From positions 320,001 to 384,000 of the forward strand of contig CAVTUQ010000002.1 in NCBI GenBank assembly GCA_963737905.1: a stretch of DNA of 64,000 nt, in the 5' to 3' direction. Each line of letters starts with the position of its first letter. Within the stretch, counting starts at the first letter, position 1. Below are positions 23,967 through 39,575 of the stretch, piece by piece. Source of the DNA: an uncultured delta proteobacterium. GTDB taxonomy: Bacteria; Desulfobacterota; Binatia; UBA9968. The notes below the pieces were generated by a model that did no database searches, had not been told where the DNA came from, and saw only the letters and a list, made by a program, of their open reading frames with translations. The position numbers and the translations under genes were made by a program.

Positions 23967-24340
23967 TAGGGTCAGGTCTTGCAATGCAACAATTAGTCAT
24001 CCTCATGGTCTGGGGTAGGAGCTATTCCTCGGACCCATCCGCATTGACTTATTTTCGCCTGACAAACAGTTGCTGCATCAACTTGTCCCACGCTGCGTAT
24101 TTTTTTTCCGCTTCTTAGTCCCGGCCCGAACTAACCAACTGTATGCGCTACATGGGCCGATCAATCTGCTGCTTGAACTCACGCAACAGCGGCGCGAGTT
24201 CAACTGTCTTCAGCGCACCGACCGCTGCTTCCCAACGCCCCTCCGCACAGAGGCCATGTACACCCGCATCCTCGTAGGCTTGAAGGAGCGCTTCAAGGCA
24301 TGCGTCTCGAATGCGTTTCGCGAGATCTTCCAGTTCCATA
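23967..24340 (-). repeat. about 375-bp duplicated block ending CAAGACCTGACCCTA, copy 1
   Basis: Similar to 26808-27186. Confidence 0.85.
24148..24339 (-). CDS. small conserved hypothetical protein (AYEDAG..GLCAEGRWE.AV)
   Basis: The ORF is retained in both diverged copies. Confidence 0.75.
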   Translation of the reverse strand: MELEDLAKRIRDACLEALLQAYEDAGVHGLCAEGRWEAAVGALKTVELAPLLREFKQQIDRPM

Positions 24341-25540: not shown

Positions 25541-25887
25541 TCAATACACCTCTCTGTTTATTGCCTGATAGCGAATGATTATCAGCAAAGCACTTGTTAA
25601 CAGACTTTTCGGATTATTTCACGGGCCGCCAAAAACGGGATCGCGTTCGATTCGATTCCCCGCTTTATACATTGATGCAGGCCTAACTTCTTGATTCCGC
25701 TCTCTCCGTTAACGAAGGGCCAGTGCGTCATCTGGCCTGGATCTGGACTTTATCGCGTTCAATTTTCAAATAGCCGCAACTGCATAGTCAACGCCATCCC
25801 CTGCATGTTTGGGCTTTTCAATCTGTTCAAACAGTATTACGGGTCACCTGTCACAGGTCGGACAACGCTAAGTCTCAGCTTCAGTAT

Positions 25888-25972
25888 GCTTCAAATCCCG
25901 TAGAATCGTCTGGGATTGTCGGAAAGAATGTTCCGTTTGACCTGCGGATTGAGGCCCTCCATCGCTTTGAAC
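25888..25972 (-). repeat. orphan copy of the 3' end of amidohydrolase 37315-38406
   Basis: 85 nt matching 37312-37396 with 3 mismatches by eye. Confidence 0.9.
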
Positions 25973-26117
25973 ACACCTAGGAGAAGTCTGTTCCAATGGT
26001 TCCAGTCGTTACAATAGTTCCAATTGTTTCGAGGCCGAAGATCTCTTCAGTACGAAAACACTCCGATAACCTGCCAAGCGCGAATACCATCGCATTGAAA
26101 AAAACAAGAAAAAATCT

Positions 26118-26513
26118 TCACGATGTTTCAACTTCAATCATACCGCTCGCGGTTATGATTTTTGCCTTGAGGCGATAAAGAATATCCATTCCCATAAGCC
26201 CATCGATCGGGCCACCGAACGGAAGCGTGTGAGCTATCACGGCAATTCGACGGAATTGTTTGCCCAATGTGCTTAAGCTTCTAACCGTCACCTTTGGAGC
26301 AATAATGTAACCGCTTCCGGTCGCTATTCTCTCGTGCTCTTTACTCTCGGCTGGGCTAATGCCGATGGATTCCAGAACTTCTACTGGGAGGACCGTGTAG
26401 GTGGAACCTGTGTCGACGAGTACTTTGATGACTTTTGTACCGGCAGGACCTGTCACCGCTGCTCTGGCAACGAAAAGGCTCCCCGTGCGCGTCAAGGAAT
26501 AACGTCGAGGCAA
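26118..26513 (-). CDS. retropepsin-like (clan AA) aspartyl protease
   Basis: LVDTGST motif; IDGLMGMDIL; overlaps the upstream small gene. Confidence 0.85.
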   Translation of the reverse strand: MPRRYSLTRTGSLFVARAAVTGPAGTKVIKVLVDTGSTYTVLPVEVLESIGISPAESKEHERIATGSGYIIAPKVTVRSLSTLGKQFRRIAVIAHTLPFGGPIDGLMGMDILYRLKAKIITASGMIEVETS

Positions 26514-26725
26514 AACATCACCGCCACGTCTTCTTGGATATCGCCGCAATACTCAACCGCCACGTTTTTGCCCAGAGTACCGAGCAAAGCTTTGTAGATG
26601 TCGTCTTTATTCGGAGCGTGCGCGATAACCTTGCCGGCCTTGACGCGAAGATCCTTGTCGAGTTTAGAAAACTCAACTAGCACCCACTCGTTAGGGTACC
26701 TTTTTCTGATCTCATCAAGCCGCAT
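26492..26725 (-). CDS. DUF5678-like small protein
   Basis: EIRKRYPNEWVLV...GKVIAH.P.KDDIY; typical partner of retropepsin-like genes. Confidence 0.72.
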   Translation of the reverse strand: MRLDEIRKRYPNEWVLVEFSKLDKDLRVKAGKVIAHAPNKDDIYKALLGTLGKNVAVEYCGDIQEDVAVMFCLDVIP

Positions 26726-26807
26726 AAGTGAAAACTTCCGCCTTTCTTTATGATGATCTTACGCGACCGGACACGCACTGACAAGGATTGTTGGCGACGT
26801 CAGAGGC

Positions 26808-27186
26808 TAGGGTCTGGTCTTGCAATACAACAATTAGTCATCCTCATGGTCTGGGCGGGAGCTGTTCCTCGGACCCATTCGCAGTGACTTATTTTCGCCT
26901 GACAAACAGTTGCTGCATCAACTTGTGCCACTCGGCGTATTTGTTTTCCGCTTCTTAGTCCGCCCCGAACTAACCAATTGCATGGGCTACATGGGCCGAT
27001 CAATCTGCTGACGGGTGTTTGAACTCACGCAACAGCGGCGCGAGATCAACAGTCTTCAGCGCGCCGACAGCTACTTCCCAACGCCCCTCCGCACAGAGGC
27101 CCTGTACACCCGCATCCTCGTATGCTCGAAGGACCGCTTCAAGGCATGCGTCTCGAATGCGTTTCGCGAGATCTTCCAGCTCCATA
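26808..27186 (-). repeat. about 375-bp duplicated block, copy 2
   Basis: Similar to 23967-24340. Confidence 0.85.
27000..27185 (-). CDS. small conserved hypothetical protein (paralog of 24148-24339)
   Basis: MELEDLAKRIRDACLEAVLRAYEDAGVQGLCAEGRWE; RBS GGGAG. Confidence 0.75.
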   Translation of the reverse strand: MELEDLAKRIRDACLEAVLRAYEDAGVQGLCAEGRWEVAVGALKTVDLAPLLREFKHPSAD

Positions 27187-27400
27187 TAGCTCCCTTAGAC
27201 GAACGTCTAGAGTATATCGCTTATTCGCAAAACTGGAACAATCCAAGCCCGACCCTGGTCCGAGACTGGCGAATGGTAATCGACACCGTGTTTTTCTCAG
27301 CTTTGTTCGACAGCGACTTCATGCCGGGAGGTCGATGGTCGTGGATCCCCGCTGCCATTTTCTGGTGGACGTCGCCGGTTTCGTTGGGTATATTTCGGCT

Positions 27401-28024
27401 ATGGCTGCACATGATCACGATCATAATGAGGGCTCTAACCTTTCCGAGGTGGAGCTGCGGGTACGCGCGCTCGAAACGATATTGGTCGACAAGGGATATA
27501 TCGAACCGGCCGCGCTCGATCGCATCGTCGAGCTTTATGAAACTAAAATCGGCCCGCATATCGGCGCGCAAGTTATCGCCAAGGCGTGGAGCGATCCTGC
27601 CTTTCGGCAGTCGCTCCTGGAGGATGCGAGCAAGGCGGTCAACGCGTTTGCGCAAGTGGGCAGCGTGGGCGAGCACTTGATCGCCGTGGAGAACACGCCG
27701 CAGGTGCACAACATGGTGGTGTGCACGTTGTGCTCGTGCTATCCGACCGACGTGCTCGGCCTCCCGCCGGCATGGTACAAGTCCTTCGCCTACCGCTCGC
27801 GGGCAGTGAAGGAACCCCGCGCGGTGCTCGCGGATTTCGGCGTCGCGCTGGCGGCCGAGACCGAGATCCGGGTTTGGGATTCGACGGCCGAGACGCGATA
27901 TGTGGTCGTGCCGATGCGTCCGGCCGGAACCGAGGGCTGGAGCGAGGCCCAGCTTGCCAAATTGATCACGCGCGACAGCATGATCGGCGCCGGTTTGCCG
28001 AAAAAGCCAAGTGAGGTGGCCTGA
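27401..28024 (+). CDS. nthA: Co-type nitrile hydratase alpha subunit
   Basis: VCTLCSCY cobalt motif; His-rich N-terminus; WDSTAETRY..P.RP.GTEG. Confidence 0.95.
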   Translation: MAAHDHDHNEGSNLSEVELRVRALETILVDKGYIEPAALDRIVELYETKIGPHIGAQVIAKAWSDPAFRQSLLEDASKAVNAFAQVGSVGEHLIAVENTPQVHNMVVCTLCSCYPTDVLGLPPAWYKSFAYRSRAVKEPRAVLADFGVALAAETEIRVWDSTAETRYVVVPMRPAGTEGWSEAQLAKLITRDSMIGAGLPKKPSEVA

Positions 28025-28684
28025 TGGACGGCGTGCACGATATGGGCGGCATGGACGGTTTCGGCAAGGTCGAGCCCGAGCCAGACGAGCCGGTTTTTCA
28101 TCATCGCTGGGAGGGGCGCGTGCTGGCGATGAGCCGCGCCATCGGCGTCTTCCGCGCCTGGACCATCGATACCAGCCGTCATGCAATCGAATTGATGGCG
28201 CCGTCGATCTATTTGACCCGCCCTTATTACGAAAAATGGTTTCTGCGCAACCAACAGTTGCTCATCGAACGCGGCCTTATCGACTCTGACGAGGTCGCCG
28301 CCGGACGCGCCCTGCGGCCCGCGAAAAACATGAAGCGCGGCCCGTTCACACTGGCCGATGTCGAAAAAGTCACGCGCCGCGGTTCGTATGGACGACCAGC
28401 GCCGGCGCCGGCACAGCTTCAAAGTGGGCGACCGCGTGCGCGCGAAAAACATTCACCCAGCGACGCATACGCGCTTGCCCCGTTATGCGCGTGGACACGA
28501 GGGAGTGGTGGAGCGCCTGCATGGCGCGCATGTCTTTCCCGATGCAGCGGCTGCCGGCAAAGGGGAAGATCCGCAGTGGCTTTATACCGTGCGCTTCGAT
28601 GCCCAGGAGCTTTGGGGCGCGGACGCGGAACCAAAGTTGAAAGTCTCCATCGAAGCATTTGAGCCTTATCTCGAACATGTCTGA
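28024..28684 (+). CDS. nthB: nitrile hydratase beta subunit (frameshift near 28415)
   Basis: MDGVHDMGGMDGFG...WEGRV; continues in another frame as FKVGDRV...HTRLPRYARG...YTVRF..QELWG. Confidence 0.92.
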
Positions 28685-29075
28685 ATCTTCATTCATTGAA
28701 CCGCAAGCCGCCCGGCGCGCAGCGGAAGCGCTTCCGGGCGTTCCGCGCGACGCGAATGGCCCAGTCTTCCGCGCACCCTGGGAAGCCCATGCGTTTGCGA
28801 TGGCGCTGGCGCTCCACGAAAAAGGTCTCTTTGCCTGGACCGAGTGGTCCGCGATGCTTGGTGAGGAGATCAAGAAGGCGCAGGCGGCTGGCGATCCCGA
28901 CACCGGAGAAACCTACTACCGCCATTGGCTCGCGACGCTCGAACGCATGGTCGCGGCAAAAGGCGCGACCTCGGCGCAAGCGCTTGAGCATCATTACCAA
29001 GCCTGGGAACGCGCGATGCAGAGAACGCCTCATGGCAAACCCATTGAGTTACGAGCGGAAGACTTTCGTAGGTGA
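28677..29075 (+). CDS. nitrile hydratase accessory/activator protein (P14K-like)
   Basis: GPVFRAPWEAHAFAMAL.LHE.G.F.W.EW...YYRHWLATLE...TPHGKPIEL. Confidence 0.92.
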   Translation: MSESSFIEPQAARRAAEALPGVPRDANGPVFRAPWEAHAFAMALALHEKGLFAWTEWSAMLGEEIKKAQAAGDPDTGETYYRHWLATLERMVAAKGATSAQALEHHYQAWERAMQRTPHGKPIELRAEDFRR

Positions 29076-29171
29076 TGGTCTGCGTTGACGGCGTCTTCTC
29101 GTAGATGATGGAAGTCTATCGAAGGGGGTTCCATCGGTCTAAAATTGGGCCTGCCCTTGCCATCGACAGTG

Positions 29172-29573
29172 TCACAGCTTTGCTACGCGAAAAGATATCA
29201 GTCGGCGCATCGCCTCGAAATGACTGTCGGTGGTGACGAACAAGGCCCCTGTGTGTCGAGCCGTCAACGCCAGGAGAAGGTCGTTCTGGAGCCGACTCAG
29301 GCCTATCTCTTCGTGGTCCCGAAATATCTCGGGCAAAAGTCTCCCCGCATCATACCAGCATTCCCGCCACGACGGCGGTTCGATGGGCATCAATTGTCTG
29401 ACAAGCCGTTCAATGACGCTTCGTGACCGCTTCGACACACCCCGTAAGAGTTCGCTCGCCACTACCGGCGAAAGTCGGACCGGAACGCTACCCATTTGTT
29501 GAACGACTTGGTCAAACGAAAGCGCGCCGGTCAACAGATCGATATGGATACAGGTGTCAAAGAAGGCGATCAT
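29172..29573 (-). CDS. vapC: VapC PIN-domain toxin
   Basis: FFDTCIHID; VASELLRG; NDLLLALTA; VTTD.HF. Confidence 0.88.
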   Translation of the reverse strand: MIAFFDTCIHIDLLTGALSFDQVVQQMGSVPVRLSPVVASELLRGVSKRSRSVIERLVRQLMPIEPPSWRECWYDAGRLLPEIFRDHEEIGLSRLQNDLLLALTARHTGALFVTTDSHFEAMRRLISFRVAKL

Positions 29574-29757
29574 TCACTTGCGTTCGCTTCAACCTTCCTT
29601 CCGTTTCCCGCAGTATGCCATGCGACTTCAGTCGTTCTTCTTCCTCTGCCAGAAGAGTGTTGATTAGTTCAGACTGAGACTTGCAATGTCTGGCGCGCAT
29701 GAGGTTTCGAAGGCGAGGCTGAAGTATCCGAACGGTGACCGCCTTTCGTCCTGCCAT
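29557..29757 (-). CDS. putative VapB antitoxin (ribbon-helix-helix-like)
   Basis: Small basic ORF with RBS GGAGGG, overlapping vapC. Confidence 0.72.
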   Translation of the reverse strand: MAGRKAVTVRILQPRLRNLMRARHCKSQSELINTLLAEEEERLKSHGILRETEGRLKRTQVNDRLL

Positions 29758-29769
29758 AAGCCCTCCATG

Positions 29770-29807
29770 ATGACAATGATGATAGATTGTCATACACGTG
29801 TTTGCAA
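29770..29807 (-). promoter_or_regulatory. vapBC promoter with an inverted-repeat operator
   Basis: TTGCAA-17nt-TATCAT; ATGACAAT-N8-ATTGTCAT at 29770-29793. Confidence 0.65.
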
Positions 29808-29966
29808 CCTACCTTGTTACCCCACCAGCGTCGGGCATCTGGCGTCGCGCGGCGCGGGTCGGTACCGGGCTAAGGCTGAGCAGCTAAGGCAAATTTCTGC
29901 CACAGGATCGTGTCGTCCGGCCTTAGCGCCGCTCCCAAAAGAATAATGTTTTGGGCAGACTATGAT

Positions 29967-30018
29967 GCTTCAAATCCCGTAGAATCGCCTGGGATTGTCG
30001 GAAAGAATTTCCGTTTGA
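29967..30018 (-). repeat. second orphan copy of the amidohydrolase 3' end
   Basis: GCTTCAAATCCCGTAGAATCGCCTGGGATTGTCGGAAAGAATTT.CCGTTTGA matches from 37312 onward. Confidence 0.88.
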
Positions 30019-30073
30019 GCTAGAAAAGTGTGGAGAGTAGGGGTAGCGTTTTTCAACCTTATAATATCACAGG

Positions 30074-30841
30074 CTACACTCTTTCATCGATTCCGGGCTT
30101 CGTCCCCTTTGCAACAGGCTCGACGATGATTCCGCCTGGAGCGAGGAATTTGAAAAGCCTTCCATTGCCGGTAATAACTTCGCAGCCGTACTTATCCGCC
30201 TCAGTCGCACACTCGGCCACGTCATCCACCTCGATACCAAAGTGATCGCACTTTCCGTTGTACTCCTTTGTCCCGACGTCGGCCTTGTTTATCGCGATGT
30301 GTACGGTTCCGTCAGTCACATAGCGCACGGTCTCTCTTAATGCCGGGACTTTGACCTGAGTGAAGCCAAACACTTGGGTTAAGAAATCGCTGGTTCTATC
30401 TATGCCATCGACTCTCATCGCTAGATGAACGATACGCCCCTTAGTGCTCTTCTCTGGATCACGCTTTTTTTGGTATCTGCCCATCGGCACGATCTCCGCT
30501 AGCGGACCTCCTGGAACGCGGAATTTCACCGGTGGCGTTGTGGAATCACCCAGGATTTCACAGCCGAACTCGCGAACCGCCGCGACGTATTTATCGAGAT
30601 CGTCCACCTCAATGGCGAAGTGGTGAATGCACGGTCCGTCACCGGCAGCCTGGGCCATAGGGGATTTATCATCATCGTATTTGAGAAAGGTGAGATCGAT
30701 TTCACCGTCACTTAGACGATTCCTGGACCGGTCGTCCGCTCTGGATTTACCTACCGGAGACAAGCCAAACACTTTTTCATAAAACTCCGCAGCCTTGTCT
30801 AAGTCTTCCACTTTAACTGCAATATGGGCGATGCGCGGCAT
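30074..30841 (-). CDS. two-domain VOC/glyoxalase family protein
   Basis: RIAHIAVKVEDL.KAA.FY..VFGL; IHHFAIEVDD; second repeat HLAMRV...HFGIEVDD. Confidence 0.88.
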   Translation of the reverse strand: MPRIAHIAVKVEDLDKAAEFYEKVFGLSPVGKSRADDRSRNRLSDGEIDLTFLKYDDDKSPMAQAAGDGPCIHHFAIEVDDLDKYVAAVREFGCEILGDSTTPPVKFRVPGGPLAEIVPMGRYQKKRDPEKSTKGRIVHLAMRVDGIDRTSDFLTQVFGFTQVKVPALRETVRYVTDGTVHIAINKADVGTKEYNGKCDHFGIEVDDVAECATEADKYGCEVITGNGRLFKFLAPGGIIVEPVAKGTKPGIDERV

Positions 30842-31001
30842 GTTTTTCCTCCTTGGTCATTTGTTCTCGCAAGGAATATGAATTGTCGGTTCTGCTCGAC
30901 TCCTGGACGCTGAGCAAACATTTTGTTGCAAACCCAACCCTGGCCGACGTTATTGTAAGGCCAAATCTTTGTCAATCATCTTTTAGTTTGGTGACGGTTT
31001 C

Positions 31002-32183
31002 CTATTCGTTGGCCCGCACCGCGATCCAACCAGCGAGCAGGGCTCCCGCCACTGCGGCGAACTGCACCGCCGCCATCGGCACCCACGTACCGTCCGCGAG
31101 CATCCCGGTGAGCTGCTGCAGCGCGGCGGGCCAGAAGAACTGCGAGAACACCACCGCCCCCGCGGCAGAGCCGGCAAGCTCGGTGTCGACCGCCATCGCG
31201 GCGGCCTGGGCGTAGGGCATGGAGAGACCTTGGGCCAGGCTGACCAAGGTTCCCGGGATGTAGAGCGCAGCCATCGAGACGCCGCCGAAATAGAGCCAGC
31301 CGGCGAGCAGCGCCCCGCTGGCGACCCCAATCACGCTGCCCAGGGTGGTCATGAATTCGATCGAACGGCTGGCGCCGATGCGGCCCGAGATGAAACTCCC
31401 GGACATGAACCCGATCGGGAAGGCGAAAAACCACAGGCCAATCCGGGCGGCATCGGCGCCGAGAAGTTCGGCGGCGAGGAACGATGCCGCCGTCGCCTGG
31501 GTGTAGAAAGCGCCCGACATCAGTCCGGGTTGCAGCATGAAGCCGACGAAGCGCCGGCGCCGCAACAGCGACCTGTAGCCGGCGAATACACCATGCGGTA
31601 CGGCGGCGTTTCGAGCGCGGGTTTCCGGAACCGCGAAGGCCACCGCGAAGATTACCAGCAGCCCGACGGCCGACGCGAGCACGAACAGCGCGCGCCAACC
31701 GAAGAGGGCTGTGAGCTGGCCTCCGATGGGCGGTGCCACCATCGGCCCCAGCACATAGGCGGCGGTGAGATAGGCGATGACCTGGGCAACCCGGTCCTGG
31801 CCATAGACGTCGCGGGCAATGGCGCGTGCCAGCACGACGCCGCAACCCGCCCCCGCTCCCTGCAGAATACGCCCCGCGAGCAGCATCGGCATATTGGCGG
31901 CGGCCATGCAGCTGGCAGCCCCGCAGGTGAACAGCACCAGCCCGCCGAGCAGCACGCGCTTGCGCCCGAACTGGTCGGACAAGCCGCCATAGGCCACCGT
32001 GAAAAAGGCCATCGACAACATCGCGAGCGACAGCGTGAGCTGCGCCACGCCGGTCGAGACCCCGAACGCCTCCTTCACGGCCGGCATGGCCGGGATGAAC
32101 AGATGGATCGAGAGCGGCCCGATGAAGGTGATGGAGACCAGCGCGATGAAGAAATACCAGCGCGGCCGGAAGGGTATCGTCAT
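31002..32183 (-). CDS. Bcr/CflA-family MFS drug efflux transporter
   Basis: FIPAMP; GGLSDQFGRKRV; GRILQG; ARAIARD; APPIGG; PET. Confidence 0.9.
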   Translation of the reverse strand: MTIPFRPRWYFFIALVSITFIGPLSIHLFIPAMPAVKEAFGVSTGVAQLTLSLAMLSMAFFTVAYGGLSDQFGRKRVLLGGLVLFTCGAASCMAAANMPMLLAGRILQGAGAGCGVVLARAIARDVYGQDRVAQVIAYLTAAYVLGPMVAPPIGGQLTALFGWRALFVLASAVGLLVIFAVAFAVPETRARNAAVPHGVFAGYRSLLRRRRFVGFMLQPGLMSGAFYTQATAASFLAAELLGADAARIGLWFFAFPIGFMSGSFISGRIGASRSIEFMTTLGSVIGVASGALLAGWLYFGGVSMAALYIPGTLVSLAQGLSMPYAQAAAMAVDTELAGSAAGAVVFSQFFWPAALQQLTGMLADGTWVPMAAVQFAAVAGALLAGWIAVRANE

Positions 32184-32428
32184 GCTATATAGAAAACTTA
32201 GACAGATTTTTTTTCTGACGGGATATATCGCCGTACCGGCGAGCGCGTCAATCGCAAACGCGTAGCAAACGCGGAGCCTCTACATTCAAGTCTTTTACTT
32301 TTGGCAATCATCGGCCGCCTCACAATAACCTGACTCGCTTTCCGCATCGCGCCGGCCAAAGTCGTGCGATTGATCACTCGGCGGTACAGAAATATTGGAT
32401 TCTTGGCAGCGAAAAATCGGAAAAGGGT

Positions 32429-33409
32429 TCATGATCCGCGCACGCTTTCCCAGAAAAGTTCCTCTACGGCTACCCGATCCCGAATCAGTCCGTCCTTGAG
32501 TAGTTGCTCAACGGTCAACAAGAGCATGGCGCGGTTTTTTGAAAGTCCTGACACATAGGGATCCGCGCCAAACACCGATTCGCCCGGCTCCAGGCCGGCT
32601 TCCTTCCGAAAAATAAGCCTGGCAGCGGGGTCGCGCCGGTAGGCCTCCTGCTTCGAGCGCTCGAAGGCGTCGAACAGGGCTTCGGGGAGCCAGGGATTCT
32701 CCTCCACCACACGCCGCTGAATCCCGACAAGGTGATTGACGGGGGTGAACCCCGCGGTCCGGTAAAATTCTTCCATGAAGCCTCGCCCGCCATCGGGGAA
32801 CAGGGGTCTGACATTGGGCGATTTGGTGTCAATGGGGATGTTGGTGGCATTGGCTGCATCGAGCTCGCCGGACTGTAGCATCTCGTTCGTCTCGTCCTCG
32901 CGAGTCAAGAAGGTGATGGAAACCCCTGGCGGGGGATCGTCCTTCAAACCGAGCAGCACCGAATGGCTTTCATTCCCTATCCGGCCATTATACCAGGCGA
33001 TATCCCGGCTCTGGATTCCGTATAATCGGTCAATCATGGTTCGAAACCAAACAAAGGCGGTCTGCGTGTAATCCGCGACGGCCAGACGCTTTCCTTTAAT
33101 GTCGCCCGCACCCGTGATGCCCGACTGCACGTTCACCCAGGTGTTCAGCTGTAGCAATGCCCGGCTAAGAAAGATGGGGATGGCTGTCCATTGCCAACGG
33201 GCGGAAGGCCTGGAGCGAACGTTCACATAGTCTGAAATGGAAAACTCGAATACGTCAAAAGCATTGTCCCTGAGCTGCGCCGCGAATAACTCGCCGGGGT
33301 TTTTAAAGGTCGTCTCCCAGTGGATGTCGACGCCCTTCACTTGCACAGCACCATCGACCAACGGCGCCGACCTAGGGTTCCTAGAAAACGCGCCCTTCAA
33401 TGTAAGCAT
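32429..33409 (-). CDS. 4,5-dihydroxyphthalate decarboxylase-like (binding-protein fold) protein
   Basis: L.DG.V...G; FDVFEFSIS; IPIFLSR; DYTQTA.VW; PVNHLV; D(P)Y..GL..NR. Confidence 0.75.
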   Translation of the reverse strand: MLTLKGAFSRNPRSAPLVDGAVQVKGVDIHWETTFKNPGELFAAQLRDNAFDVFEFSISDYVNVRSRPSARWQWTAIPIFLSRALLQLNTWVNVQSGITGAGDIKGKRLAVADYTQTAFVWFRTMIDRLYGIQSRDIAWYNGRIGNESHSVLLGLKDDPPPGVSITFLTREDETNEMLQSGELDAANATNIPIDTKSPNVRPLFPDGGRGFMEEFYRTAGFTPVNHLVGIQRRVVEENPWLPEALFDAFERSKQEAYRRDPAARLIFRKEAGLEPGESVFGADPYVSGLSKNRAMLLLTVEQLLKDGLIRDRVAVEELFWESVRGS

Positions 33410-33439
33410 CGGTATCCTCCCTGACTAAGCGACATTGAG

Positions 33440-33481
33440 TGTTCAAATGGTTCAAGCCGTTCAAATCGTTCAAACCGTTGA
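33440..33481. repeat. 9-nt-period GTTCAAA/TTGAAC tandem repeat
   Basis: GTTCAAATG GTTCAAGCC GTTCAAATC GTTCAAACC GTTGA. Confidence 0.6.
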
Positions 33482-33799
33482 GATCAAAACCCTCGCTGAC
33501 ACGAACAGAGGTTCTCGCGTCCAACCGGCTCGCGATGACCTTTCTTGGCTCGTCGCCCACAGTTGGCCGACTGTGGGGCATAAAGGGCCCAAGTCGGCTT
33601 TTAGCTTATAAGTGACTTTGACTCAATGTGTCGAACCTCTGACGAGCGATCCGTCCTCGGAAATTCTCGCTTTCACACCACGATTGTATTGCAAAAACTC
33701 GTGCGCTTGACGACTCGCCGGTTGGACGATAGGGTATTAAGGATTTGCTATAATATAAACGGCACAAGACTAAACGGCATAAGATCAGGAGATACAATC

Positions 33800-34396
33800 A
33801 TGGCAACTACAACGGAGCGCCCTCTCGCTGATGCGCTCACCGCAATCAAGACGCGCCGCTCGGTGAAGGAGTACGTTTCCACCGAGATTCCTCGGGAGTG
33901 GATCGAGGAGCTACTCGACGCCGCCCACTGGGCGCCCAACCACAAATTGACCCATCCCTGGCGTTTTCACGTGTTTTCCGGAGAGGGGCGCGAGCGATTG
34001 GTCGGAGCCCGACAGGCGGCGGTACGTTGGGCTGCAGAGAAAAAGGGTCAGCAGGCGAGCGAAGAGGCTCTCGGCTTCGCGCGGGCTAAGTGTTATTCGT
34101 CCTCAGTCATTATTGTCGTTTCCATGGTGGGCGATGAGAACAAAATCGTTGACCAGGAGAACTTCGCGGCCTGCTGGTGCGCGATTGAGAACCTGCTGGT
34201 CGCCGCGAGCGCGCGAGGCCTGGGCAGCTATCCCAGCACGGGCGCCTGGATCGACCAAAACTTCGTTGGCCCAGTTCTCGGACTCACAGAGAAAGAGCGG
34301 CCGGTGGCGTGCATTTTCCTGGGGTACTCCGAGCAGCAGACTATGGCCAAGCGCCTGCCCGTGGAGCGCCATACCACCTGGTACACGGAGGCCTGA
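33800..34396 (+). CDS. nitroreductase family protein (YdjA-like)
   Basis: IKTRRSVK; AAHWAPNH...PWRF; AIENLL.AA.A.GLGS; IFLGY. Confidence 0.9.
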   Translation: MATTTERPLADALTAIKTRRSVKEYVSTEIPREWIEELLDAAHWAPNHKLTHPWRFHVFSGEGRERLVGARQAAVRWAAEKKGQQASEEALGFARAKCYSSSVIIVVSMVGDENKIVDQENFAACWCAIENLLVAASARGLGSYPSTGAWIDQNFVGPVLGLTEKERPVACIFLGYSEQQTMAKRLPVERHTTWYTEA

Positions 34397-34531
34397 AAGC
34401 TCAGAAGGGTTCACGTTAGCTTATCGGGCGAACGACTATCTCGCGCCGTGATTGCCACGGCGGCCATCGAGGTCACGGTCGAGCTTCGGTAAATAGGGTT
34501 GCTAGTCAATATAGATACAGGGAGATATACA

Positions 34532-35077
34532 ATGACACGCATTTCCATTATGACGCCCGACCAGATGAACGATGAACAGCGCGCCGTGATCGACGCATCC
34601 AAGGCCAACGGCAAGCCGCATGGCGGGCCATTCTGGGCCTATATTCGGAATCCCAAACTGATGCAGAACATCCAGAACATGGGAGCCTGTATCGCCGACA
34701 GCACCCTGTCCGCCCGCGAACAGCAGATCGTCATCTTGACCGTGGCGCGGTTCTGGGGCGCCAAATACCCGTGGGCCGTTCAGTGCCGCAACGCTCTTAA
34801 AGTTGGACTCACGCAGGAAGAGATCGACGCCATCAACGCCCGCGGCGCGCTGCCGACCGATGACAAGCGCGAATTGCTCGCGCATCAGATCGCCAACGAA
34901 CTGCTCGCCAACAAGGGACTACGCGACACCACCTATGCATCCGCCGAAGCAACCTTTAGCACTGAGGAGCTGGTAGCTCTGGTTGCCCGGATCGGCTCAT
35001 TCTCGATGACGTGTTGCACCGCCAACGCGTTCGATATCACGCCGCCTGATGACGCACCTGCCCGCCTTGAAGCATAA
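34532..35077 (+). CDS. carboxymuconolactone decarboxylase (CMD/AhpD-like) family protein
   Basis: GGPF..YIRNP; LSARE..I.IL..AR.W...Y.W. Confidence 0.8.
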   Translation: MTRISIMTPDQMNDEQRAVIDASKANGKPHGGPFWAYIRNPKLMQNIQNMGACIADSTLSAREQQIVILTVARFWGAKYPWAVQCRNALKVGLTQEEIDAINARGALPTDDKRELLAHQIANELLANKGLRDTTYASAEATFSTEELVALVARIGSFSMTCCTANAFDITPPDDAPARLEA

Positions 35078-35302
35078 AAACCGTGTTGCTCAATATAGAA
35101 TTGGATAGGGTCGTGCTTTGATTTCTTGACTATCCATTAGCTCGCCGTCCGCATCTCGCTTGCCAAAACTCCAAACGCTTACAGGCAAGAAGGTCTTAGC
35201 TAAATTGACATAACATTGTCCTTGAAGTATGTGGTCGGCATGGCAGCCGGCACTAAAGCTAGCCAACCCTATTTAAGATTTGCGGAATCGGAAGAAGAAA
35301 AC

Positions 35303-35432
35303 TCCCGCAAAGGCCCTAGGCATGTCCTGAGCGGCGTCGAAGGGGGCGCCAAGTTTCGGAAAATAAGTAAATTTCTTTCTTTGCGTGCTTGGCGTCCCTT
35401 CGACGTTGCTGCTCAGGACATGCTTGGCGGGA
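35303..35432. repeat. nested palindromic REPIN-like element
   Basis: GCATGTCCTGAGC..CGTCGAAGGG / CCCTTCGACG...GCTCAGGACATGC inside CCCGCAAAGG..CGCCAAG / CTTTGCG..CTTGGCG arms. Confidence 0.7.
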
Positions 35433-35493
35433 AAATTTCTTGAAGTCGTTTTGTCAAATATTTCAAAGAACCTAAAACATGGACGGAGGTAAA

Positions 35494-36537
35494 ATGAAAC
35501 TTTTTTACTTTTGGCCTTGCTCGATTTTCATCCTGGTATTTCTCTTCGCGAAGGACGGTGTCTGCCAGTCGCCTTATTATCAAGGCAAAACGATCACATT
35601 CATGCAAGGACGCGATCCCGGCGGCGTGGGAGACTTGAGAAATAAAGTGATTTTTCCCTTCATGCAAAAATACATTCCCGGGCATCCAACCATCATTTCA
35701 GAATACATGCCTGGAGGAGGCGGCAGAAAGGTTGCGAACCACGTCTATCATAATGTAAAGGGCGATGGGCTCACGATCGGCGCCAGCTCGCCGGGCATTC
35801 TTGCGAGCGCAGTGTTGGGAATGGCCGGCGTTAATTTTGATCCCGCCAAGTTTATCTATCTCGGATCGCCATTCAGCGAGAACAACAATATCTTTGTAAC
35901 CCGGAAAGCTCTCGGCATTAACAGCCTGGAAAAGCTGCGCGAGCGCGTCGGGCTCAGAGTCGGCGGCCAATCGGTGGGCCATGTGCAGTTCATCCGCAGC
36001 AGGCTCTTCGCCTGGCTTTTGGGCATCAAAGAACCGAGATTCGTCGTTGGCTATGCGGGCGCTGAATTGGATCTGGCCTTGGAGCGCGGTGAAATCGACA
36101 GCAGAGCTTCCGCGGTCGATAAGGACACGATGTCGGAGGAATACAAGAAGATCGCCGATTTTCACGCCATACTCGAGATTCCCAAAGGAAGTCGTCCGCC
36201 GGTATTTGCCGTTTTGCCAGAGGTCGGGACTTTCACTCGCACCCAGCTGGAAAGGGACGTTCTGGCGATGTCGCGGACTTTCTGGGGGGCCGGCACACTG
36301 ATCTTTCTACCGCCAAACACGCCGGAGAATTTGGTTCAGACAGTCAGGCAAGCAATTCGTAGGTCCTTCGAAGATCGAGAGTTTCATGAAGCGTACAAAA
36401 AACTACTCGGAGTGGAGCCGACGCCGTTGATGCCCGAGGATCAGCAGAAACTTGTGGCGGATCTTCCGCGGGATCCTGAGGTGGCTAAAGCTTTTGCAGC
36501 GATCGCTGATATCGGTCCTCTGCCGCCGCGCAAATAA
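35494..36537 (+). CDS. TctC/Bug-like substrate-binding protein
   Basis: YYQGKTI; GG.GD; YMPGGGGRK.AN; DGLTIG; ALERGEID; LPPNTP. Confidence 0.88.
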   Translation: MKLFYFWPCSIFILVFLFAKDGVCQSPYYQGKTITFMQGRDPGGVGDLRNKVIFPFMQKYIPGHPTIISEYMPGGGGRKVANHVYHNVKGDGLTIGASSPGILASAVLGMAGVNFDPAKFIYLGSPFSENNNIFVTRKALGINSLEKLRERVGLRVGGQSVGHVQFIRSRLFAWLLGIKEPRFVVGYAGAELDLALERGEIDSRASAVDKDTMSEEYKKIADFHAILEIPKGSRPPVFAVLPEVGTFTRTQLERDVLAMSRTFWGAGTLIFLPPNTPENLVQTVRQAIRRSFEDREFHEAYKKLLGVEPTPLMPEDQQKLVADLPRDPEVAKAFAAIADIGPLPPRK

Positions 36538-36655
36538 ACGGAAATTATCATCGCATGACACGCTCTACAGTCTTTTCGAGTTTATGCTCAGTCACGCGTT
36601 CTTCCAGCCGTCCAGCTTGATGTGTGAGCAGAAATCTTCCGAGGAAACTCCGCGT

Positions 36656-37204
36656 TTAACGCTTGAGGTGCGACGGCGCGTCCGTCGGCGGTTCGGCGCC
36701 AACAACATTTGCCATCATCGCAGTCGTAGAAAAATGGCCGATCACGCCTACCACGTCGGCGAGGCGTTGATAGCCAATCGTCGATTCAGCGGCCTTGAAG
36801 ATGTCGTCTGCTAACGATCCGGTTGCCAGCAGTTCACGCGCCACGGCGTGCACCATCTCGTCGGCGCTGTCCGTGAATTTCGGCTGTTCCCTCGCGTTGA
36901 TGGCCTCGATCACGGCCCGGTCAACGCCTGCGGCCAGCGCCATCGCAGCTTGCGCGCTCCAGGGGTATGCGGCGTTCCAGTGTTGCGCCGTCATCAGCGA
37001 CACGATCCGCACCTGCTCAGACGTCAACGAACAGTCAAGGAGATGCGCACTCGATGCGTTGTGGACCTGCCAGAGGCCCGGCGAATACGCATAGCCGACC
37101 GATGGCCCTCTGCCGACCCGCCCGGTCGTTGCCACGGTCGCGTCGTAAACCTTCTGCTGTTCCGCGGCCATCTCGTCTCGGCTCAACACGGGTATTCTCG
37201 TCAT
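36656..37204 (-). CDS. CMD/AhpD-like family protein
   Basis: Paralog-like to 34532-35077 (MTRI.....M..EQ; W...YPW..Q...AL..G). Confidence 0.8.
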   Translation of the reverse strand: MTRIPVLSRDEMAAEQQKVYDATVATTGRVGRGPSVGYAYSPGLWQVHNASSAHLLDCSLTSEQVRIVSLMTAQHWNAAYPWSAQAAMALAAGVDRAVIEAINAREQPKFTDSADEMVHAVARELLATGSLADDIFKAAESTIGYQRLADVVGVIGHFSTTAMMANVVGAEPPTDAPSHLKR

Positions 37205-37259
37205 GTTTCCACTCCTGATTGCTTATTGGCCAAGGCTGGCGGTAGCGAACCTGGCCGAT

Positions 37260-37300
37260 GGGGCGCAAATCTTGACTTGAGCACTTGTGAGATCCTGAAA
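37260..37300 (-). repeat. short transposase 3'-end remnant, copy 9 (opposite strand)
   Basis: Reverse complement reads TTTCAGGATCTCAC-AAGTGCTCAAGTCAAGATTTGCGCCCC. Confidence 0.75.
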
Positions 37301-37314
37301 TGACATTCCAAGCT

Positions 37315-38406
37315 TCAAATCCCGTAGAATCGTCTGGGATTGTCGGAAAGAATTTTTCGTTTGACCTGCGGATCGAGGCCCTCCATCGCTTTGAACCGGG
37401 AAATCGCGTTGAGCTCGCTTGAGGTATCGCCATGGCCGTAGTCGGTACCGATCACGAGATTTTCCTCGCCCGCGTAAGAGATCACATAAGAAAAATCGTC
37501 ATCGGTCTGGGTTGAAACATAGATCCCGTAGTCACGGAAGCAGTTCATCGAGACCGGGTGTTTACCTCCCAGGGAGCGCCGCACGGCTTCGTGAACGACC
37601 CAGGGCACCCATTGGCTCGACGTCTCGATGAAACCCCAGCGCAGCTTCGCGAAGACCCGCGGTATCTCGCTCATGATCAGCGCGTAGCATGCGGTGACTG
37701 TCGGGACTCGAAATGTCGAGAAACCGCCACCGGCTTCGTTGTTCAGCAAATTGAACAGCTCGGGGTTGCCGTTGGCAATGTGCACGGTCACCGGAATGTC
37801 GAGTCGCTCGGCCTCGTCATAGATTGGATAATAAAATGGGTCCGTCATCAGCTTACCCCTTTCGAAGGGGCGCATGCAGACGCCGACGGCGCCATGTTCC
37901 TTGGCGAAGCGCATTTGCGGCGCGGCTTCGGTCGGGGTCAACGCCGGAACGACACAGGTCCAGCGCAAGCGGTTTGCACCGAGCTTCCAGACATCCGCCA
38001 GCCAGCGGTTCCAGCTCCAACAGAGCGCGATCTCCACTTCGGGGCGGCGCGTGAGCGGCCGGAGCCAGAGCGAGTTGTAGAGCACTTGCACATCGATCCC
38101 CAAGGCGTCCATGTGTCTCAGCCGTTGGGTCACATCGCTGAGCTCCCGGGCTTGCACTGAGGTTCCCACTTCCCGGCCGAATCGTTTGACATGCTCTTCA
38201 GACTGCTTGTCGTTGGGGGAGGGAAACTTGGGGCCGAGATCCTCGCCGTCGAGAACCCAATGCTGGCGCTCGGGATTGTCCGGCTCGGCCACTAACGTAG
38301 GGCGATATTTTTCTTCGCCGGCTTCGAGATAATCCCATACGCGCTCGTTCTCTACCACATGCGCGTCCGCGTCAATCACGTCGGTTTTTACATTTGCCGT
38401 TGACAT
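37315..38406 (-). CDS. amidohydrolase_2 family protein
   Basis: IDADAHV; MD..GIDVQVLY; VHI; GFIE; GTDYGH.D; ILSDNPRRFY. Confidence 0.9.
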   Translation of the reverse strand: MSTANVKTDVIDADAHVVENERVWDYLEAGEEKYRPTLVAEPDNPERQHWVLDGEDLGPKFPSPNDKQSEEHVKRFGREVGTSVQARELSDVTQRLRHMDALGIDVQVLYNSLWLRPLTRRPEVEIALCWSWNRWLADVWKLGANRLRWTCVVPALTPTEAAPQMRFAKEHGAVGVCMRPFERGKLMTDPFYYPIYDEAERLDIPVTVHIANGNPELFNLLNNEAGGGFSTFRVPTVTACYALIMSEIPRVFAKLRWGFIETSSQWVPWVVHEAVRRSLGGKHPVSMNCFRDYGIYVSTQTDDDFSYVISYAGEENLVIGTDYGHGDTSSELNAISRFKAMEGLDPQVKRKILSDNPRRFYGI

Positions 38407-38515
38407 CGGATCTCCGTCGTCAAAAGGATTACCCCAACATCGGCTTCGCTGTCTAGAGGTCTGTATTGGGCCAGCATGAATTCCACAGTTTGCGACTTTC
38501 TGATCCCCGATTTTG

Positions 38516-39575
38516 TTAGCTCGCTTCTCCAAGAGTCACGGCCACGTCGTCCTGGCTCACCTCGAACTGTGTGCCAAAGCGGGCGGAGATCTGCTGTATA
38601 TCCTTGACGATCTGTGGAGCCTGGGACGGCTGAAAGAAGTCGGGAGGGCCGTTCCCCTTGTACAGTCCAGGGACAAAGGAGAGACGTTGGAGTTTGCCAT
38701 CGTGAATACGGCAGCGCACCAGCATGGCCAAGAGTATTAGGTTGGGGCGCTTCTGGTAGTGAAGGTCGTGGACAAAGTTGCCCAGCGAGTAGAGTATGGG
38801 CTTGCCCTTATACACCTCAATGGCCTGGAGAACGTGAGAATGATGGCCGGCCACCATGTCTGCGCCGGCGTCGATCGCGAAATGGCCCATCTCTGTCTGG
38901 TATTCCGTAAGCTCGCCGGTTCCACCTGTAGCGGGTGACACACCCCAGTGCCAGGACACAATCACTACGTCCGCTTCTTTTCGTGCTTTGCGAATATCCT
39001 CTTCCAGAGCGGCGCGGTCCGCGCCGCGATCAGGAACAGTGTGGATGATCGGTGGAGAGCCTGGCACATGGTGCACCCGAAGCCGGGGCTCGTAAAAAGT
39101 CTGGACGGAATAGTAGGCAATGCCGCCCCTGTCTTCTGTAGCGGGCGCCGTGATCGGGTCGCACACCGACGCGCGGCAGACGAAAGCGACCTTGGTACCG
39201 TTGCGCTCGATGATGGCGGGCTTTCGTGCTTCGGCGAGATTGCGGCCGCCGCCCCCGCGCACGATGCCAGCCTTATCCAGGACGTCCAGGCAACGCAAAA
39301 AAGGATCTAGGCCGTGCCATGTGCTTGGATTGTTGGCGAGGTTCATGACATTGAAGCCTGCCCGGACGTAGGAGTCGAACATCCACTCATCGGTTCGAGG
39401 GTGGTGGTCGTGGTCATAGGGGCGCGAGATACTTGGCATCAGCCACCACGGTTTCCAGGTTGCAGAAGGCGATGTCTGCGTCTTTGAGCAGATGCCGGGA
39501 AGTAGCGAAGGCGGAATCGGGATCGGGGCGACCCACGAAGGTATCGCCCACCAGCACGATATTGACGTTACTCAC
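38516..39575 (-). CDS. CapA / poly-gamma-glutamate synthesis family metallophosphatase (frameshift near 39420)
   Basis: IVLVGD...FCNLET, then a frame change; NLANN; VSWHWG; IDAGAD.V.GHHSHV; YSLGNF. Confidence 0.87.

Follow-up and report, generated by a model that had tools for sequence, protein, structure and literature searches.

The window, by which we mean the whole stretch of DNA analysed, comprises 64,000 nt of the forward strand (positions 320,001-384,000 of contig CAVTUQ010000002.1, assembly GCA_963737905.1) and derives from an uncultured soil bacterium classified as a delta proteobacterium (Desulfobacterota; Binatia; UBA9968). An intact amidohydrolase gene is located on the minus strand at 37315-38532, where an open reading frame (ORF) matching Pfam Amidohydro_2 ends in a TGA stop codon at 37315-37317. 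Since relatives align only from residue 34-43 onward, a shorter start at 38406 is plausible. Sequence comparison bore out a preliminary description of this region, which had reported that the gene's 3' end, stop codon included, recurs twice downstream. The end of the intact gene together with the following 3 nt (copy A, 37312-37396, minus strand, 85 nt) served as the reference for these repeats. Copy C (25888-25972, minus strand) matches it at 96.5% over its full 85 nt (E 2.7e-33). Copy B (29967-30021, minus strand, 52-55 nt) is 92.9% identical to 37312-37367 in an alignment of 56 columns with a 1-nt deletion (E 2.2e-15), four of these positions being different from the gene tail. All three copies share one orientation and a common 3' boundary 3 nt past the TGA stop, while the 5' extents of the two displaced tails are unequal (85 nt for copy C, 52-55 nt for copy B), in agreement with the fixed 3' end and variable 5' length described previously.

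The repeats at 37312-37367 and 29967-30021 (93% identity) directly flank a block of 7.3 kb. This consists of a short transposase remnant adjoining the gene and 7.2 kb of further DNA (30022-37252) encoding a CMD-like protein of 182 aa, a TctC-like binding protein, a 75-aa ORF, a CMD-family protein, a nitroreductase, a 326-aa binding-protein-like ORF, an MFS efflux pump and a glyoxalase-family protein. Searches with Pfam and NCBIfam detected no recombinase among these eight genes. Contiguous with copy B on its other side is a hairpin-forming flank of 39 nt (29928-29966, minus strand), followed by a module of a VapC (PIN) toxin gene and a small upstream ORF (29172-29793, minus strand) and by nitrile hydratase alpha, beta and accessory genes (27122-29075, plus strand), which are convergent with the amidohydrolase gene. 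Copy C lies in different surroundings. It is contained, together with a 77-aa ORF, an aspartyl protease gene and a four-fold TTGGAAC repeat, in a nested insertion of 1,015 nt (25784-26798, minus strand) that splits the second copy of another repeat unit into 25731-25783 and 26799-27186; the same unit is unbroken at 23900-24340. The downstream flank of copy C is unlike those of copies A and B, and its first ~12 nt resemble the flank class of two related loci (L001 and L021). Because copy C occupies this separate insertion, copies B and C do not represent two serial insertions at one site, and the earlier proposal of serial att-like insertions was not supported.

The preliminary description had also found no integrase in the window. 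This holds for the scanned set of 128 ORFs (55 + 24 + 49, with all ORFs of at least 110 aa included), none of which could be assigned to a family of integrases or resolvases. Transposition genes among the scanned ORFs were limited to istA and istB of an IS21 element (20127-22531), and no tRNA or tmRNA was found in the window.

Related loci contain an empty site

We compared the region with 42 Candidatus Binatia-type loci, of which 23 hold the 3' end of the amidohydrolase gene; 12 close loci were used for analysis of the flanks. Among these 12 we distinguished at least three classes of downstream flank, all of them diverging no more than 3 nt past the stop codon. The amidohydrolase gene thus forms the conserved margin of a region that is hypervariable in Candidatus Binatia genomes. 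What had been described as a fixed site is the place where this conserved gene meets a variable flank, and it is a breakpoint in many relatives.

The flank of copy B directly follows the intact gene in six of the 12 close loci, with a match of ~40 nt in two (L002 and L026) and a partial match in four (L003, L005, L007 and L008). In three of these (L003, L005 and L008) the intact gene is followed by the accessory, beta and alpha genes of nitrile hydratase in the order and orientation seen in the window (61-94% identity in aa; 85-89% in nt over 1.7 kb), and the 7.2-kb block, or 7.3 kb with the remnant, is missing from between them. The VapC module is missing at that place as well. The check for empty sites that had been suggested earlier was therefore positive for copy B, and the 7.3 kb separating copy B from the gene represent an insertion that lacks an integrase. 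The same comparison contradicts the earlier view that the interval between copies B and C had been inserted, since its genes are ancestral and collinear in relatives. Copy B is, as judged from these alignments, most probably the original tail of the gene, still attached to its ancestral flank and nitrile hydratase neighbours. Part of the inserted block was also found in a relative (L004), where a segment corresponding to 34422-36547 is collinear (90% in nt) and directly adjoins the amidohydrolase gene, with homologues of 35479-36537 (94% aa), 35216-35443 and 34499-35077 (88% aa) immediately after it.

One nucleotide site within copy B is informative. At 46 nt from the boundary the gene carries a rare base that it shares with only one of the 12 readable relatives (L028), which is also the sole relative with a transposase remnant at its stop codon; copies B and C and the other 11 readable relatives carry the other base. 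This single site suggests that copy B and the tail now present on the gene belong to different alleles, in which case the insert would have come with a gene tail of its own, and copy B would be the leftover of the resident. The previously suggested re-copying of a variable stretch at each insertion is then not needed. Differences from the 12 relatives are evenly spread along the gene, and no recombination breakpoint was visible within it. A second copy of the gene 3' end was found in none of the 23 related loci that hold that end, which argues that the process is infrequent at the amidohydrolase gene. Likewise, no relative carried tandem full-length copies within 10 kb at >60% identity. One metagenome-assembled genome contains two copies of the gene with nitrile hydratase genes, on separate contigs (L003 and L008), and in the former a PGA_cap gene lies upstream, together with the amidohydrolase and nitrile hydratase genes. 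On the upstream side, homology of the gene stops close to a CTAG in 12 of the 15 loci compared.

Transposase remnants lie behind the gene and within a cassette array

The ~60-nt remnant joined to the gene (37253-37311, minus strand) was detected both by blastn, in which 37300-37253 matched 5521-5574 at 78% (E 1.6e-4) in inverted orientation relative to the array repeat described below, and by nhmmer (37317-37248, E 1.1e-8). Gene and remnant meet at a common GAAG, in the window and in L028. The short repeat copy that had been noted behind the stop codon is thus real; the gap of ~14 nt that had been placed before it is not, as the alignment begins in the stop region at this GAAG. TIR remnants directly behind the gene were observed in L003 and L008 as well as in these two loci.

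TIRtrons are RAYT-like Y1 tyrosine transposase genes (TIRYT) flanked by terminal inverted repeats (TIRs) (Di Nocera 2013, PMC3733652). Members of TIRYT subclass 2.1 have a DnaA-like C-terminal domain (Quentin 2018, PMC6006769), and the TIRs, with the 8-nt consensus GGGGWSAS, occur single, paired or grouped, according to the available text of both papers (PMC3733652, PMC6006769). The peptide encoded by our repeat retrieved 62 proteins, the full-length members of which (~324 aa, range ~303-331 aa) carry Y1_Tnp (PF01797), two of the matched proteins also having Bac_DnaA_C (PF08299). The start of the repeat, GGGGTCAA, fits the first seven positions of GGGGWSAS and deviates at the eighth, with A in place of the C or G allowed by the consensus. 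It also occurs upstream of a degenerate transposase gene in L021, and a unit ends with its complement at 9960-9970. By these criteria, what had been called a transposase-end repeat is predicted to be the 3' end plus TIR of a RAYT-like Y1 tyrosine transposase of the TIRYT/TIRtron type. A tblastn search of the window with P0002 yielded fragments and no intact transposase gene; the traces consist of 3' remnants and one 5' fragment.

The remnant behind the amidohydrolase gene belongs to the family that makes up an array at 4521-16930 (plus strand). There, eight transposase 3'-end remnants, each with its TIR, form a repeat of ~130 nt in one orientation and separate cassettes of 0.8-3 kb that are rich in toxin-antitoxin pairs, often contain several genes and include no mobility gene. 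CTAGCG follows four of the eight units, and a variant differing at one position follows two more. The 5' ends of the array units did not show the TTTGA/CTAG signature described below, nor was covariation detected in the consensus fold of the repeats. The nitrile hydratase block of L003 and L008 has a long TIR with CTAG at one border and, at the other, a sequence that agrees with the opposite form of the TIR at 11 of 12 positions. We also considered the amidohydrolase fragments as copies of the element itself. This was rejected: they are 93-96% identical to the gene, and only 5-9 border nt resemble the TIR core. An nhmmer search with the TIR profile did not find them.

Each of the three breakpoints that delimit the gene fragments falls on a TIR-core look-alike, and one of these look-alikes is spelled by the last codons of the gene (Ile-stop). 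The 5' junction of copy B reads TTTGA-G-CTAG (plus strand, 30014) and that of copy C TTTGA-N6-CTAG (plus strand, 25966), both on the same strand as the array ends. At the equivalent two places the intact gene has the look-alikes without CTAG. The joints lie at TTTGA(C), common to the gene and the TIR ends; the data end at the joint on the donor side. CTAG is rare (78 occurrences in 64 kb), and TTTGA-N(1-6)-CTAG occurs five times in the two strands of the window taken together, namely at three true TIR ends and at the 5' junctions of the two displaced tails. Simulations gave an expectation of 1.9 strict motifs per window with a maximum of 6, so that the number of motifs is not decisive by itself, whereas their placement is; as the motif was noticed after looking, its significance is inflated. 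The geometry reported earlier is that of displaced target-gene ends, and the likeness to the array is real, although of another kind, in that the breakpoints fall on TIR-core look-alikes.

Discussion

The insertion, the ancestral state of the flank and neighbours of copy B, the lack of an integrase and the motif at the junctions are shown by the data; from these observations we infer an order of events, an anchoring by homology and a possible part for a transposase. The best explanation, to which we assign a probability of roughly 45%, is a sequential displacement that was anchored by homology on one side and joined at TIR-like cores without homology on the other. The ancestor would have had the gene, the short hairpin flank and the convergent nitrile hydratase operon, as relatives do. 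Incoming DNA from a relative, carrying the gene, the transposase remnant and then the TctC, CMD, nitroreductase and further genes, would have paired with the resident gene on one side and been joined illegitimately on the other, 52-55 nt before the resident stop codon. The gene would thereby be rebuilt with the incoming tail, and the last 52-55 nt of the resident (copy B) moved 7.3 kb downstream with the old flank and neighbours attached. Copy C would be a similar relic from another copy or allele, carried in with the nested 1-kb insertion. The joints do not fall at random: given that the junctions lie on TIR-core look-alikes with CTAG at both 5' joints, TIR ends, or breaks at them, may have supplied the partner for the illegitimate joint. 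No integrase would be required.

The empty site in six of 12 close loci, three of them with the nitrile hydratase operon, is consistent with this displacement, as are the block adjoining an intact gene in L004, the base shared only with L028, the GAAG microhomology in both loci, and the lack of tRNA genes and of site-specific recombinases (0/128 ORFs). The TTTGA-N(1-6)-CTAG junctions, confined in the window to TIR ends and copies B and C, also fit. There is precedent at cdi and T6SS loci, where gene remnants pile up 5' to 3' behind an intact gene by homology-facilitated illegitimate recombination (PMC6336857, as far as the available text describes it). However, comparison with 12 relatives shows no recombination breakpoint inside the gene; the allele argument is a single nucleotide; and a second copy was absent from all 23 related loci that hold the gene 3' end. 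Moreover, two independent joints on look-alikes that both gain CTAG show more order than microhomology joining predicts and hint at an enzyme. Displacement also offers no simple explanation of the eight-unit array, as no intact transposase gene stands at its head in the window, and the 5' ends of its units lack the TTTGA/CTAG signature.

That order could instead reflect a transposase-driven cassette system, a bolder alternative that we think unlikely, in which a TIRYT encoded elsewhere nicks TIR ends and their look-alikes and joins CTAG-led blocks. The outcome would be either paired nicks on opposite strands, giving long target duplications of variable length, or cassette exchange between TIR-type ends. 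With three look-alikes in its tail (a sense-strand one at the stop and two on the opposite strand, 52 and 85 nt upstream), the gene end could act as a pseudo-element end. The breakpoints all fall on these look-alikes, the 5' junctions carry the motif on the strand of the array ends, and CTAGCG or its variant follows six array units. The TIR remnants right behind the gene in four loci, the bordered nitrile hydratase blocks of two, the precision of the stop as a breakpoint in several relatives (divergence within 3 nt) and the end of upstream homology near CTAG in 12 of 15 loci point the same way. Yet fill-in duplication predicts copies that start out identical, whereas copy B departs from the gene tail at four of 56 positions, the L028-type base among them. 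The window holds transposase fragments only, the array units have no signature at their 5' ends, and the available text of PMC3733652 and PMC6006769 contains no TIRYT biochemistry. The motif was recognised post hoc, which inflates its significance, and with a simulated expectation of 1.9 and a maximum of 6 its count is not decisive apart from its placement. We regard as unlikely a Binatia cassette system on TIRtron ends, whose transposase would cut the TTTGAC-CTAG core and chance look-alikes, the Ile-stop end of the amidohydrolase gene among them, and join blocks of genes.

One or two integrase islands with an attachment site in the gene 3' end, which would have restored the tail and left attL and attR, seem improbable. 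Direct 3'-end repeats, an empty site and a tail of a different allele are all expected products of such islands, and in a window of only 64 kb the integrase may have been lost or act in trans from elsewhere. Even so, two specificities would be needed for crossovers at 52 and 85 nt, identity between the repeats is incomplete (93% and 96.5%), what lies between copies B and C is ancestral neighbourhood, neither the 128 ORFs nor the eight block genes include an integrase or resolvase, and a second copy was seen at none of 23 related loci. Decay of tandem paralogues, in which deletions left the last 52 and 85 nt of two out of two or three full-length genes in a row, agrees with the varied neighbours of the gene, the genome with two gene and nitrile hydratase copies, the occurrence of each tail's flank class behind some full-length gene and the 4-nt microhomology typical of deletions, but is likewise improbable, as the ancestral unit includes PGA_cap upstream (L003), which would have to be duplicated and then exactly deleted, both independent deletions would have to end on TIR-core look-alikes beside CTAG, and no relative has tandem full-length copies within 10 kb at >60% identity.

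To our knowledge, displaced gene tails are mostly attributed to past integrase activity, and the TIRYT/RAYT-like transposases are a little-studied family whose activity has never been shown. At the present locus such tails arose at a metabolic gene of an uncultured soil phylum, with no integrase in the window, and the breakpoints point to the ends of this transposase family. If the transposase were the agent, this would constitute a second, independent route to bacterial cassette arrays and give TIRtrons a testable function: TIRYT would be a gene-shuffling enzyme acting in trans, yielding both integron-like arrays such as the eight units at 4.5-17 kb and displaced gene tails of variable length. 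If it were not, the locus would still be a clean natural case of additive, homology-anchored gene acquisition, whose relics allow the acquisitions to be dated and ordered.

Comparison with known systems

Integrase islands at the 3' ends of protein or tRNA genes are bounded by attL and attR repeats with a common 3' limit, restore the gene with incoming DNA, may occur in tandem and carry the recombinase gene inside, usually beside one repeat. The amidohydrolase locus resembles them in its direct 3'-end repeats with a common 3' limit, the restored gene and the empty site in relatives, and differs in having no integrase in the block or window, imperfect repeats of two lengths and a second interval that is ancestral. 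The 'peel and paste' elements of the IS200/IS605 family (Y1 HUH) insert beside a short specific motif and make no classical short target duplication; they have subterminal hairpins instead of TIRs and do not duplicate tens of target nt. TIRYT belongs to the same enzyme superfamily, and motif-adjacent insertion would fit breakpoints beside TTTGA. The array at 4.5-17 kb is similar to chromosomal integrons in its 0.8-3 kb cassettes, many of them toxin-antitoxin, and its ~130-nt repeat in one orientation. Unlike integrons, it has no integron integrase in the window (no Phage_integrase match among 128 ORFs), its repeat is explained as a transposase remnant plus TIR rather than attC, and its cassettes are often multi-gene. 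As in TIRtrons, the repeat encodes the C-terminus of ~324-aa Y1_Tnp proteins and GGGGTCAA fits the first seven positions of the consensus, though with A at position eight; arrays of 5'-truncated remnants that split cassettes, and gene tails resembling element ends, are not described in the available text of PMC3733652 and PMC6006769. In the orphan remnants of cdi, rhs and T6SS effector/immunity loci, to the extent covered by the available text of PMC6336857, an intact head gene is likewise accompanied by 5'-truncated remnants in the same orientation on former downstream partners, with no integrase. In contrast to those, the gene here is a metabolic amidohydrolase whose cargo is made up of ordinary genes for metabolism and transport, the remnants, at 52-85 nt, are very short, just one of the pair stands in series at the locus, and the non-homologous joints lie on look-alikes of transposon ends.

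Results

The amidohydrolase gene, recognized by a Pfam family match (Amidohydro_2), is an open reading frame on the minus strand at 37315-38532, and its own 3' end (copy A, minus strand, 37312-37396) served as the reference for the direct repeats. Two further tails lie in the same orientation as the gene: copy C at 25888-25972 (85 nt, 96.5% identity, E 2.7e-33) and copy B at 29967-30021 (52-55 nt with a 1-nt deletion, 92.9% identity, E 2.2e-15). Alignment in gene orientation revealed that the likeness of the three copies ends 3 nt past the TGA stop in each, while its 5' start differs among them. The preliminary description had proposed direct copies of the gene's 3' end with a fixed 3' end and a variable 5' length, and the aligned 85 nt and 52-55 nt show these to be real. 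An assembly artefact is an unlikely source of the copies, because substitutions and an indel distinguish them and because their upstream neighbors share no sequence with the gene. The gene stop is followed by a short inverted copy of the repeat from the 4.5-17 kb array, and alignment to the array units revealed that this copy starts at a GAAG common to them and to the stop region. The short transposase-end repeat reported earlier after the stop is thus present, but the gap of approximately 14 nt ascribed to it is not.

The first feature away from the gene stop is a transposase-end remnant of approximately 60 nt (37311-37253). It is followed by an eight-gene block consisting of a CMD-like gene, a TctC-like gene, a small ORF, and genes or ORFs for a CMD protein, a nitroreductase, a binding-protein-like product, an MFS efflux pump and a glyoxalase-family protein. 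After copy B come, in order, a PIN/VapC pair and the nitrile hydratase alpha and beta genes with accessory genes, convergent with the amidohydrolase gene, and then a small conserved ORF, an aspartyl protease gene, copy C and a TctC gene. None of the 128 ORFs scanned in the window, which included every ORF of at least 110 aa, matched an integrase or resolvase, and the absence of an integrase asserted previously therefore holds; IS21 istA and istB (20127-22531) are the sole transposition genes among the window ORFs. No tRNA or tmRNA target lies within the window, no known RNA family matched at the Rfam gathering score, and a promoter and terminator scan of 25.7-38.6 kb returned no more sites than shuffled sequence. 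Unnamed ORFs scanned in or near the region had no match in PHROGs, and nine of ten ORFs had none in PADLOC, the tenth matching weakly (22598-23635, E 6.4e-4). The stretch that separates the two repeat-bearing regions (16983-23635) contains the gene for a 1,019-aa NACHT NTPase and the IS21 pair istA and istB, together with an ORF of 345 aa that weakly matches a defence-system nuclease-TIR model (E 6e-4). Eight large minus-strand ORFs (177-897 aa) occupy a stretch of lower G+C (45-52%) at 48762-60492; none had a Pfam match at or above the curated cut-off or any match in PHROGs or PADLOC, and one gave a weak DUF6603 hit. A segment of approximately 140 nt (33591-33731) that spans the start of the nitroreductase gene, from its upstream region into its first codons, is found again at 77-81% in two relatives (L004 3762-3871, L008 3241-3372), each time upstream of a different gene.

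A single protein scan of species-representative genomes yielded 42 related loci, mostly from metagenome-assembled Candidatus Binatia. The gene's 3' end was present in 23 of these, exactly once per locus, and a second tail copy was found in none of the 23, 19 of which carry at least 3 kb of downstream sequence. Twelve loci match the 3' end at 90% identity or more, and the flanks that follow their stop fall into three classes, which split within 3 nt of one another directly behind it. Six loci (L002, L003, L005, L007, L008, L026) continue with the sequence that stands behind copy B in the window, four (L001, L006, L021, L028) have another flank in common, and the remaining two (L004, L031) have different flanks again. 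A similar flank follows a more distant orthologue (L009, 82%), so the copy B flank is ancestral. In three relatives (L003, L005, L008) the accessory, beta and alpha nitrile hydratase genes lie 20-170 nt after the intact gene, in the order and orientation seen behind copy B (61-94% aa identity, and 85-89% nt identity over 1.7 kb), and the upstream PGA_cap gene is present in L003 as in the window. An empty site behind the gene, as envisaged in the preliminary description, is accordingly seen in these three, where the nitrile hydratase operon directly follows the intact gene. Behind the intact gene of L004 lie homologues of 35479-36537 (94% aa), 35216-35443 and 34499-35077 (88% aa), a segment collinear with the window's inserted block at 90% nt identity over 2.1 kb. 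The gene has two alternative natural neighborhoods, and both are present in series in the window: copy B, its flank and the nitrile hydratase operon are the old arrangement, and the 7.3 kb between copy B and the gene is an insertion. When the 25 loci with a length of 8 kb or more were scanned for self-repeats, L019, L028 and L029 gave repeats; the L028 repeat, which was inspected (123 nt), is intergenic and is not a gene tail.

These related loci are metagenome assemblies, and the assignment of L002, L004 and L031 to other phyla may reflect binning. In these three and in L015, the gene and its upstream gene are 92-94% identical in nucleotide sequence to the window, in genomes labelled Acidobacteriota, Thermodesulfobacteriota and Verrucomicrobiia, which indicates either binning or labelling errors or movement of the gene between lineages. 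Identity of the gene among 12 species-level genomes is 90-96%. L003 and L008 are two contigs of one metagenome-assembled genome, each with an amidohydrolase, an inverted-repeat arm and a nitrile hydratase operon, so that either the genome has two copies or its bin combines two strains.

Only one allele-separating site lies inside copy B, 46 nt from the boundary. The gene's base at this site was seen elsewhere only in L028, the sole relative with a transposase remnant at the gene stop, while the other base is carried by copies B and C and by 11 of the 12 readable relatives. This pattern suggests that the present gene tail came with the insert and that copy B is the resident's, an assignment that rests on one nucleotide. 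No recombination breakpoint is visible inside the gene.

Copy C has a different setting. A 440-nt unit (23900-24340, a 63-aa ORF with downstream DNA) is present twice at 90% identity, and the second unit is split into 25731-25783 and 26799-27186 by 1,015 nt that contain the protease gene and copy C. Copy C therefore arrived inside a nested insertion, and the DNA between copies B and C is largely the ancestral neighborhood, so the two serial duplications at one site that had been proposed are not upheld. The first 12 nt or so of the flank downstream of copy C resemble the flank class of L001 and L021. We also considered copy C as an internally deleted second gene and rejected this, as the upstream piece in common with L022 is a four-fold TTGGAAC repeat that is not gene-specific. 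The ORF of the 440-nt unit is conserved (61-63 aa) with no family match; the unit's end resembles an inverted-repeat end (GACCCTAG), and the 1-kb insertion with copy C sits 8 nt beyond it.

The array (4521-16930, + strand) contains eight remnants of the 3' part of a RAYT-like transposase gene, and each remnant has an inverted-repeat arm. Each unit reads as the C-terminus of one protein, and a peptide search among longer proteins gave 62 hits; the full-length ones (approximately 303-331 aa) carry Y1_Tnp (PF01797), Bac_DnaA_C is present in two hits as well, and the source records of several give the name REP-associated tyrosine transposase. By tblastn with one of these proteins, the units begin at residues 193-291 and all reach the last residue, 324. 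Those at 6378, 11197 and 16722 are the only ones with a common start position, and neither CTAG nor TCAAA was found at the 5' ends of the eight units. The inverted-repeat arm follows the transposase gene end, and its partner arm, located upstream of a degenerate transposase gene in L021, begins GGGGTCAA. It agrees with the 8-nt GGGGWSAS at positions one to seven, and at the eighth it has A where the consensus has C or G. GGGGWSAS is the consensus of the 'TIRtrons' described by Di Nocera et al. (PMC3733652), and the transposase family matches the subclass 2.1 defined by Quentin et al. (PMC6006769), which has a DnaA-like domain. A consensus fold of the array units has a plausible three-helix shape and is unsupported, with a double-sided change in just one of 32 pairs.

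The array cassettes (0.8-3 kb) encode DUF433/PIN, Phd-YefM/toxin, PIN, a HigB-like/HTH pair, glyoxalase, TctC-like, NMT1-like and polysaccharide deacetylase products, and no intact transposase gene stands at either array end. Directly behind the fifth unit is an inverted 5' transposase fragment (11424-11540, approximately the first 20 codons) with its own repeat arm, the one 5' remnant in the array as against eight 3' remnants. The NMT1-like binding-protein cassette occurs twice within the array (10079-11401 and 15604-16926, 98.4% over 1,323 nt); a third, diverged copy (63151-64000, 83%) belongs to an ordinary operon at the window end, and homology to it ends 7 nt past the stop codon. A repeat of approximately 75 nt with four spaced TTGAAC motifs is found at 6540-6610, 9778-9848, 13790-13860, 14124-14207 and 33440-33478, and in relatives at L001 11136-11211, L021 717-790, L026 1179-1248 and L031 16758-16839. 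It sits at one identical place within three transposase remnants and just behind the amidohydrolase stop in L001, L006 and L021; a TTGGAAC variant is found at 25983-26052, 17 nt upstream of copy C, and in L022 upstream of the gene. Because the TTGAAC motif resembles the inverted-repeat core, we would guess that the DnaA-like domain of the transposase may bind at these repeats.

On the + strand, the true repeat ends read TTTGAC, 1-5 nt, CTAG; CTAGCG follows four of the eight array units, and two more are one base off. The pattern TTTGA-N(1-6)-CTAG occurs five times in the window with both strands counted. Three occurrences are true repeat ends (11388, 11518, 13986), and the other two fall exactly on 5' junctions, that of copy C at 25966 and that of copy B at 30014. 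With 78 occurrences in 64 kb, CTAG is rare, and the 1.9 patterns per window expected from first-order simulation is probably an overestimate since the simulation does not model this shortage; the motif was found by inspection, and it is its placement that counts, not its number. In the intact gene, both 5' junction places are repeat-core look-alikes that lack CTAG, from which it follows that TTTGA is the gene's own antisense sequence and that CTAG comes from neighboring DNA. At the common 3' boundary, the Ile-stop codons form a third look-alike. Behind the gene, the joint with the transposase remnant lies at the 4-nt GAAG microhomology, in L028 as well as in the window. The nitrile hydratase block of L003 and L008 is separated from the gene by a long repeat arm with CTAG, and on its far side has an 11-of-12 match to the opposite arm. 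Of 15 loci, 12 have a CTAG no more than approximately 60 nt from the point where the gene's upstream homology to relatives ends, and the remaining three share the upstream gene; the gene itself is thus a shuffled module.

Discussion

Sequential displacement is the simplest account of the locus. Incoming DNA from a relative would pair with the resident gene, its non-homologous far end would be joined slightly upstream of the homology end, and the resident gene tail would stay behind after the joint. Sequential displacement has been put forward to account for orphan remnants behind cdi and T6SS genes (PMC6336857). On this account, the 3' end is fixed because homology between alleles ends there, and the 5' end varies because the joint position varies; the absence of an integrase and the allele difference are explained as well. 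Left unexplained by displacement is the position of both joints and of the recurrent stop break on end look-alikes of one transposon, each 5' joint carrying the CTAG of that end. Our view is accordingly that the joint had as its partner a repeat end or a break made at such an end. The main rival is that the Y1 transposase catalyzed the whole process. It is favored by the 4.5-17 kb array and by the repeat arms that flank the nitrile hydratase block in relatives, but in its fill-in-duplication form it conflicts with the allele difference between the gene tail and copy B. Reading the arrays as integrons fails, as they have no integrase and their repeat is a transposase gene remnant.

The geometry of the window locus is already known from displacement arrays and also from the att repeats of integrative islands, and the transposase family and its repeats are likewise known. 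An array of transposase remnants separating toxin-antitoxin cassettes is not described in the available portions of the TIRtron literature (PMC3733652, PMC6006769). What is new here is that the breakpoints coincide with sequences resembling the repeat core.
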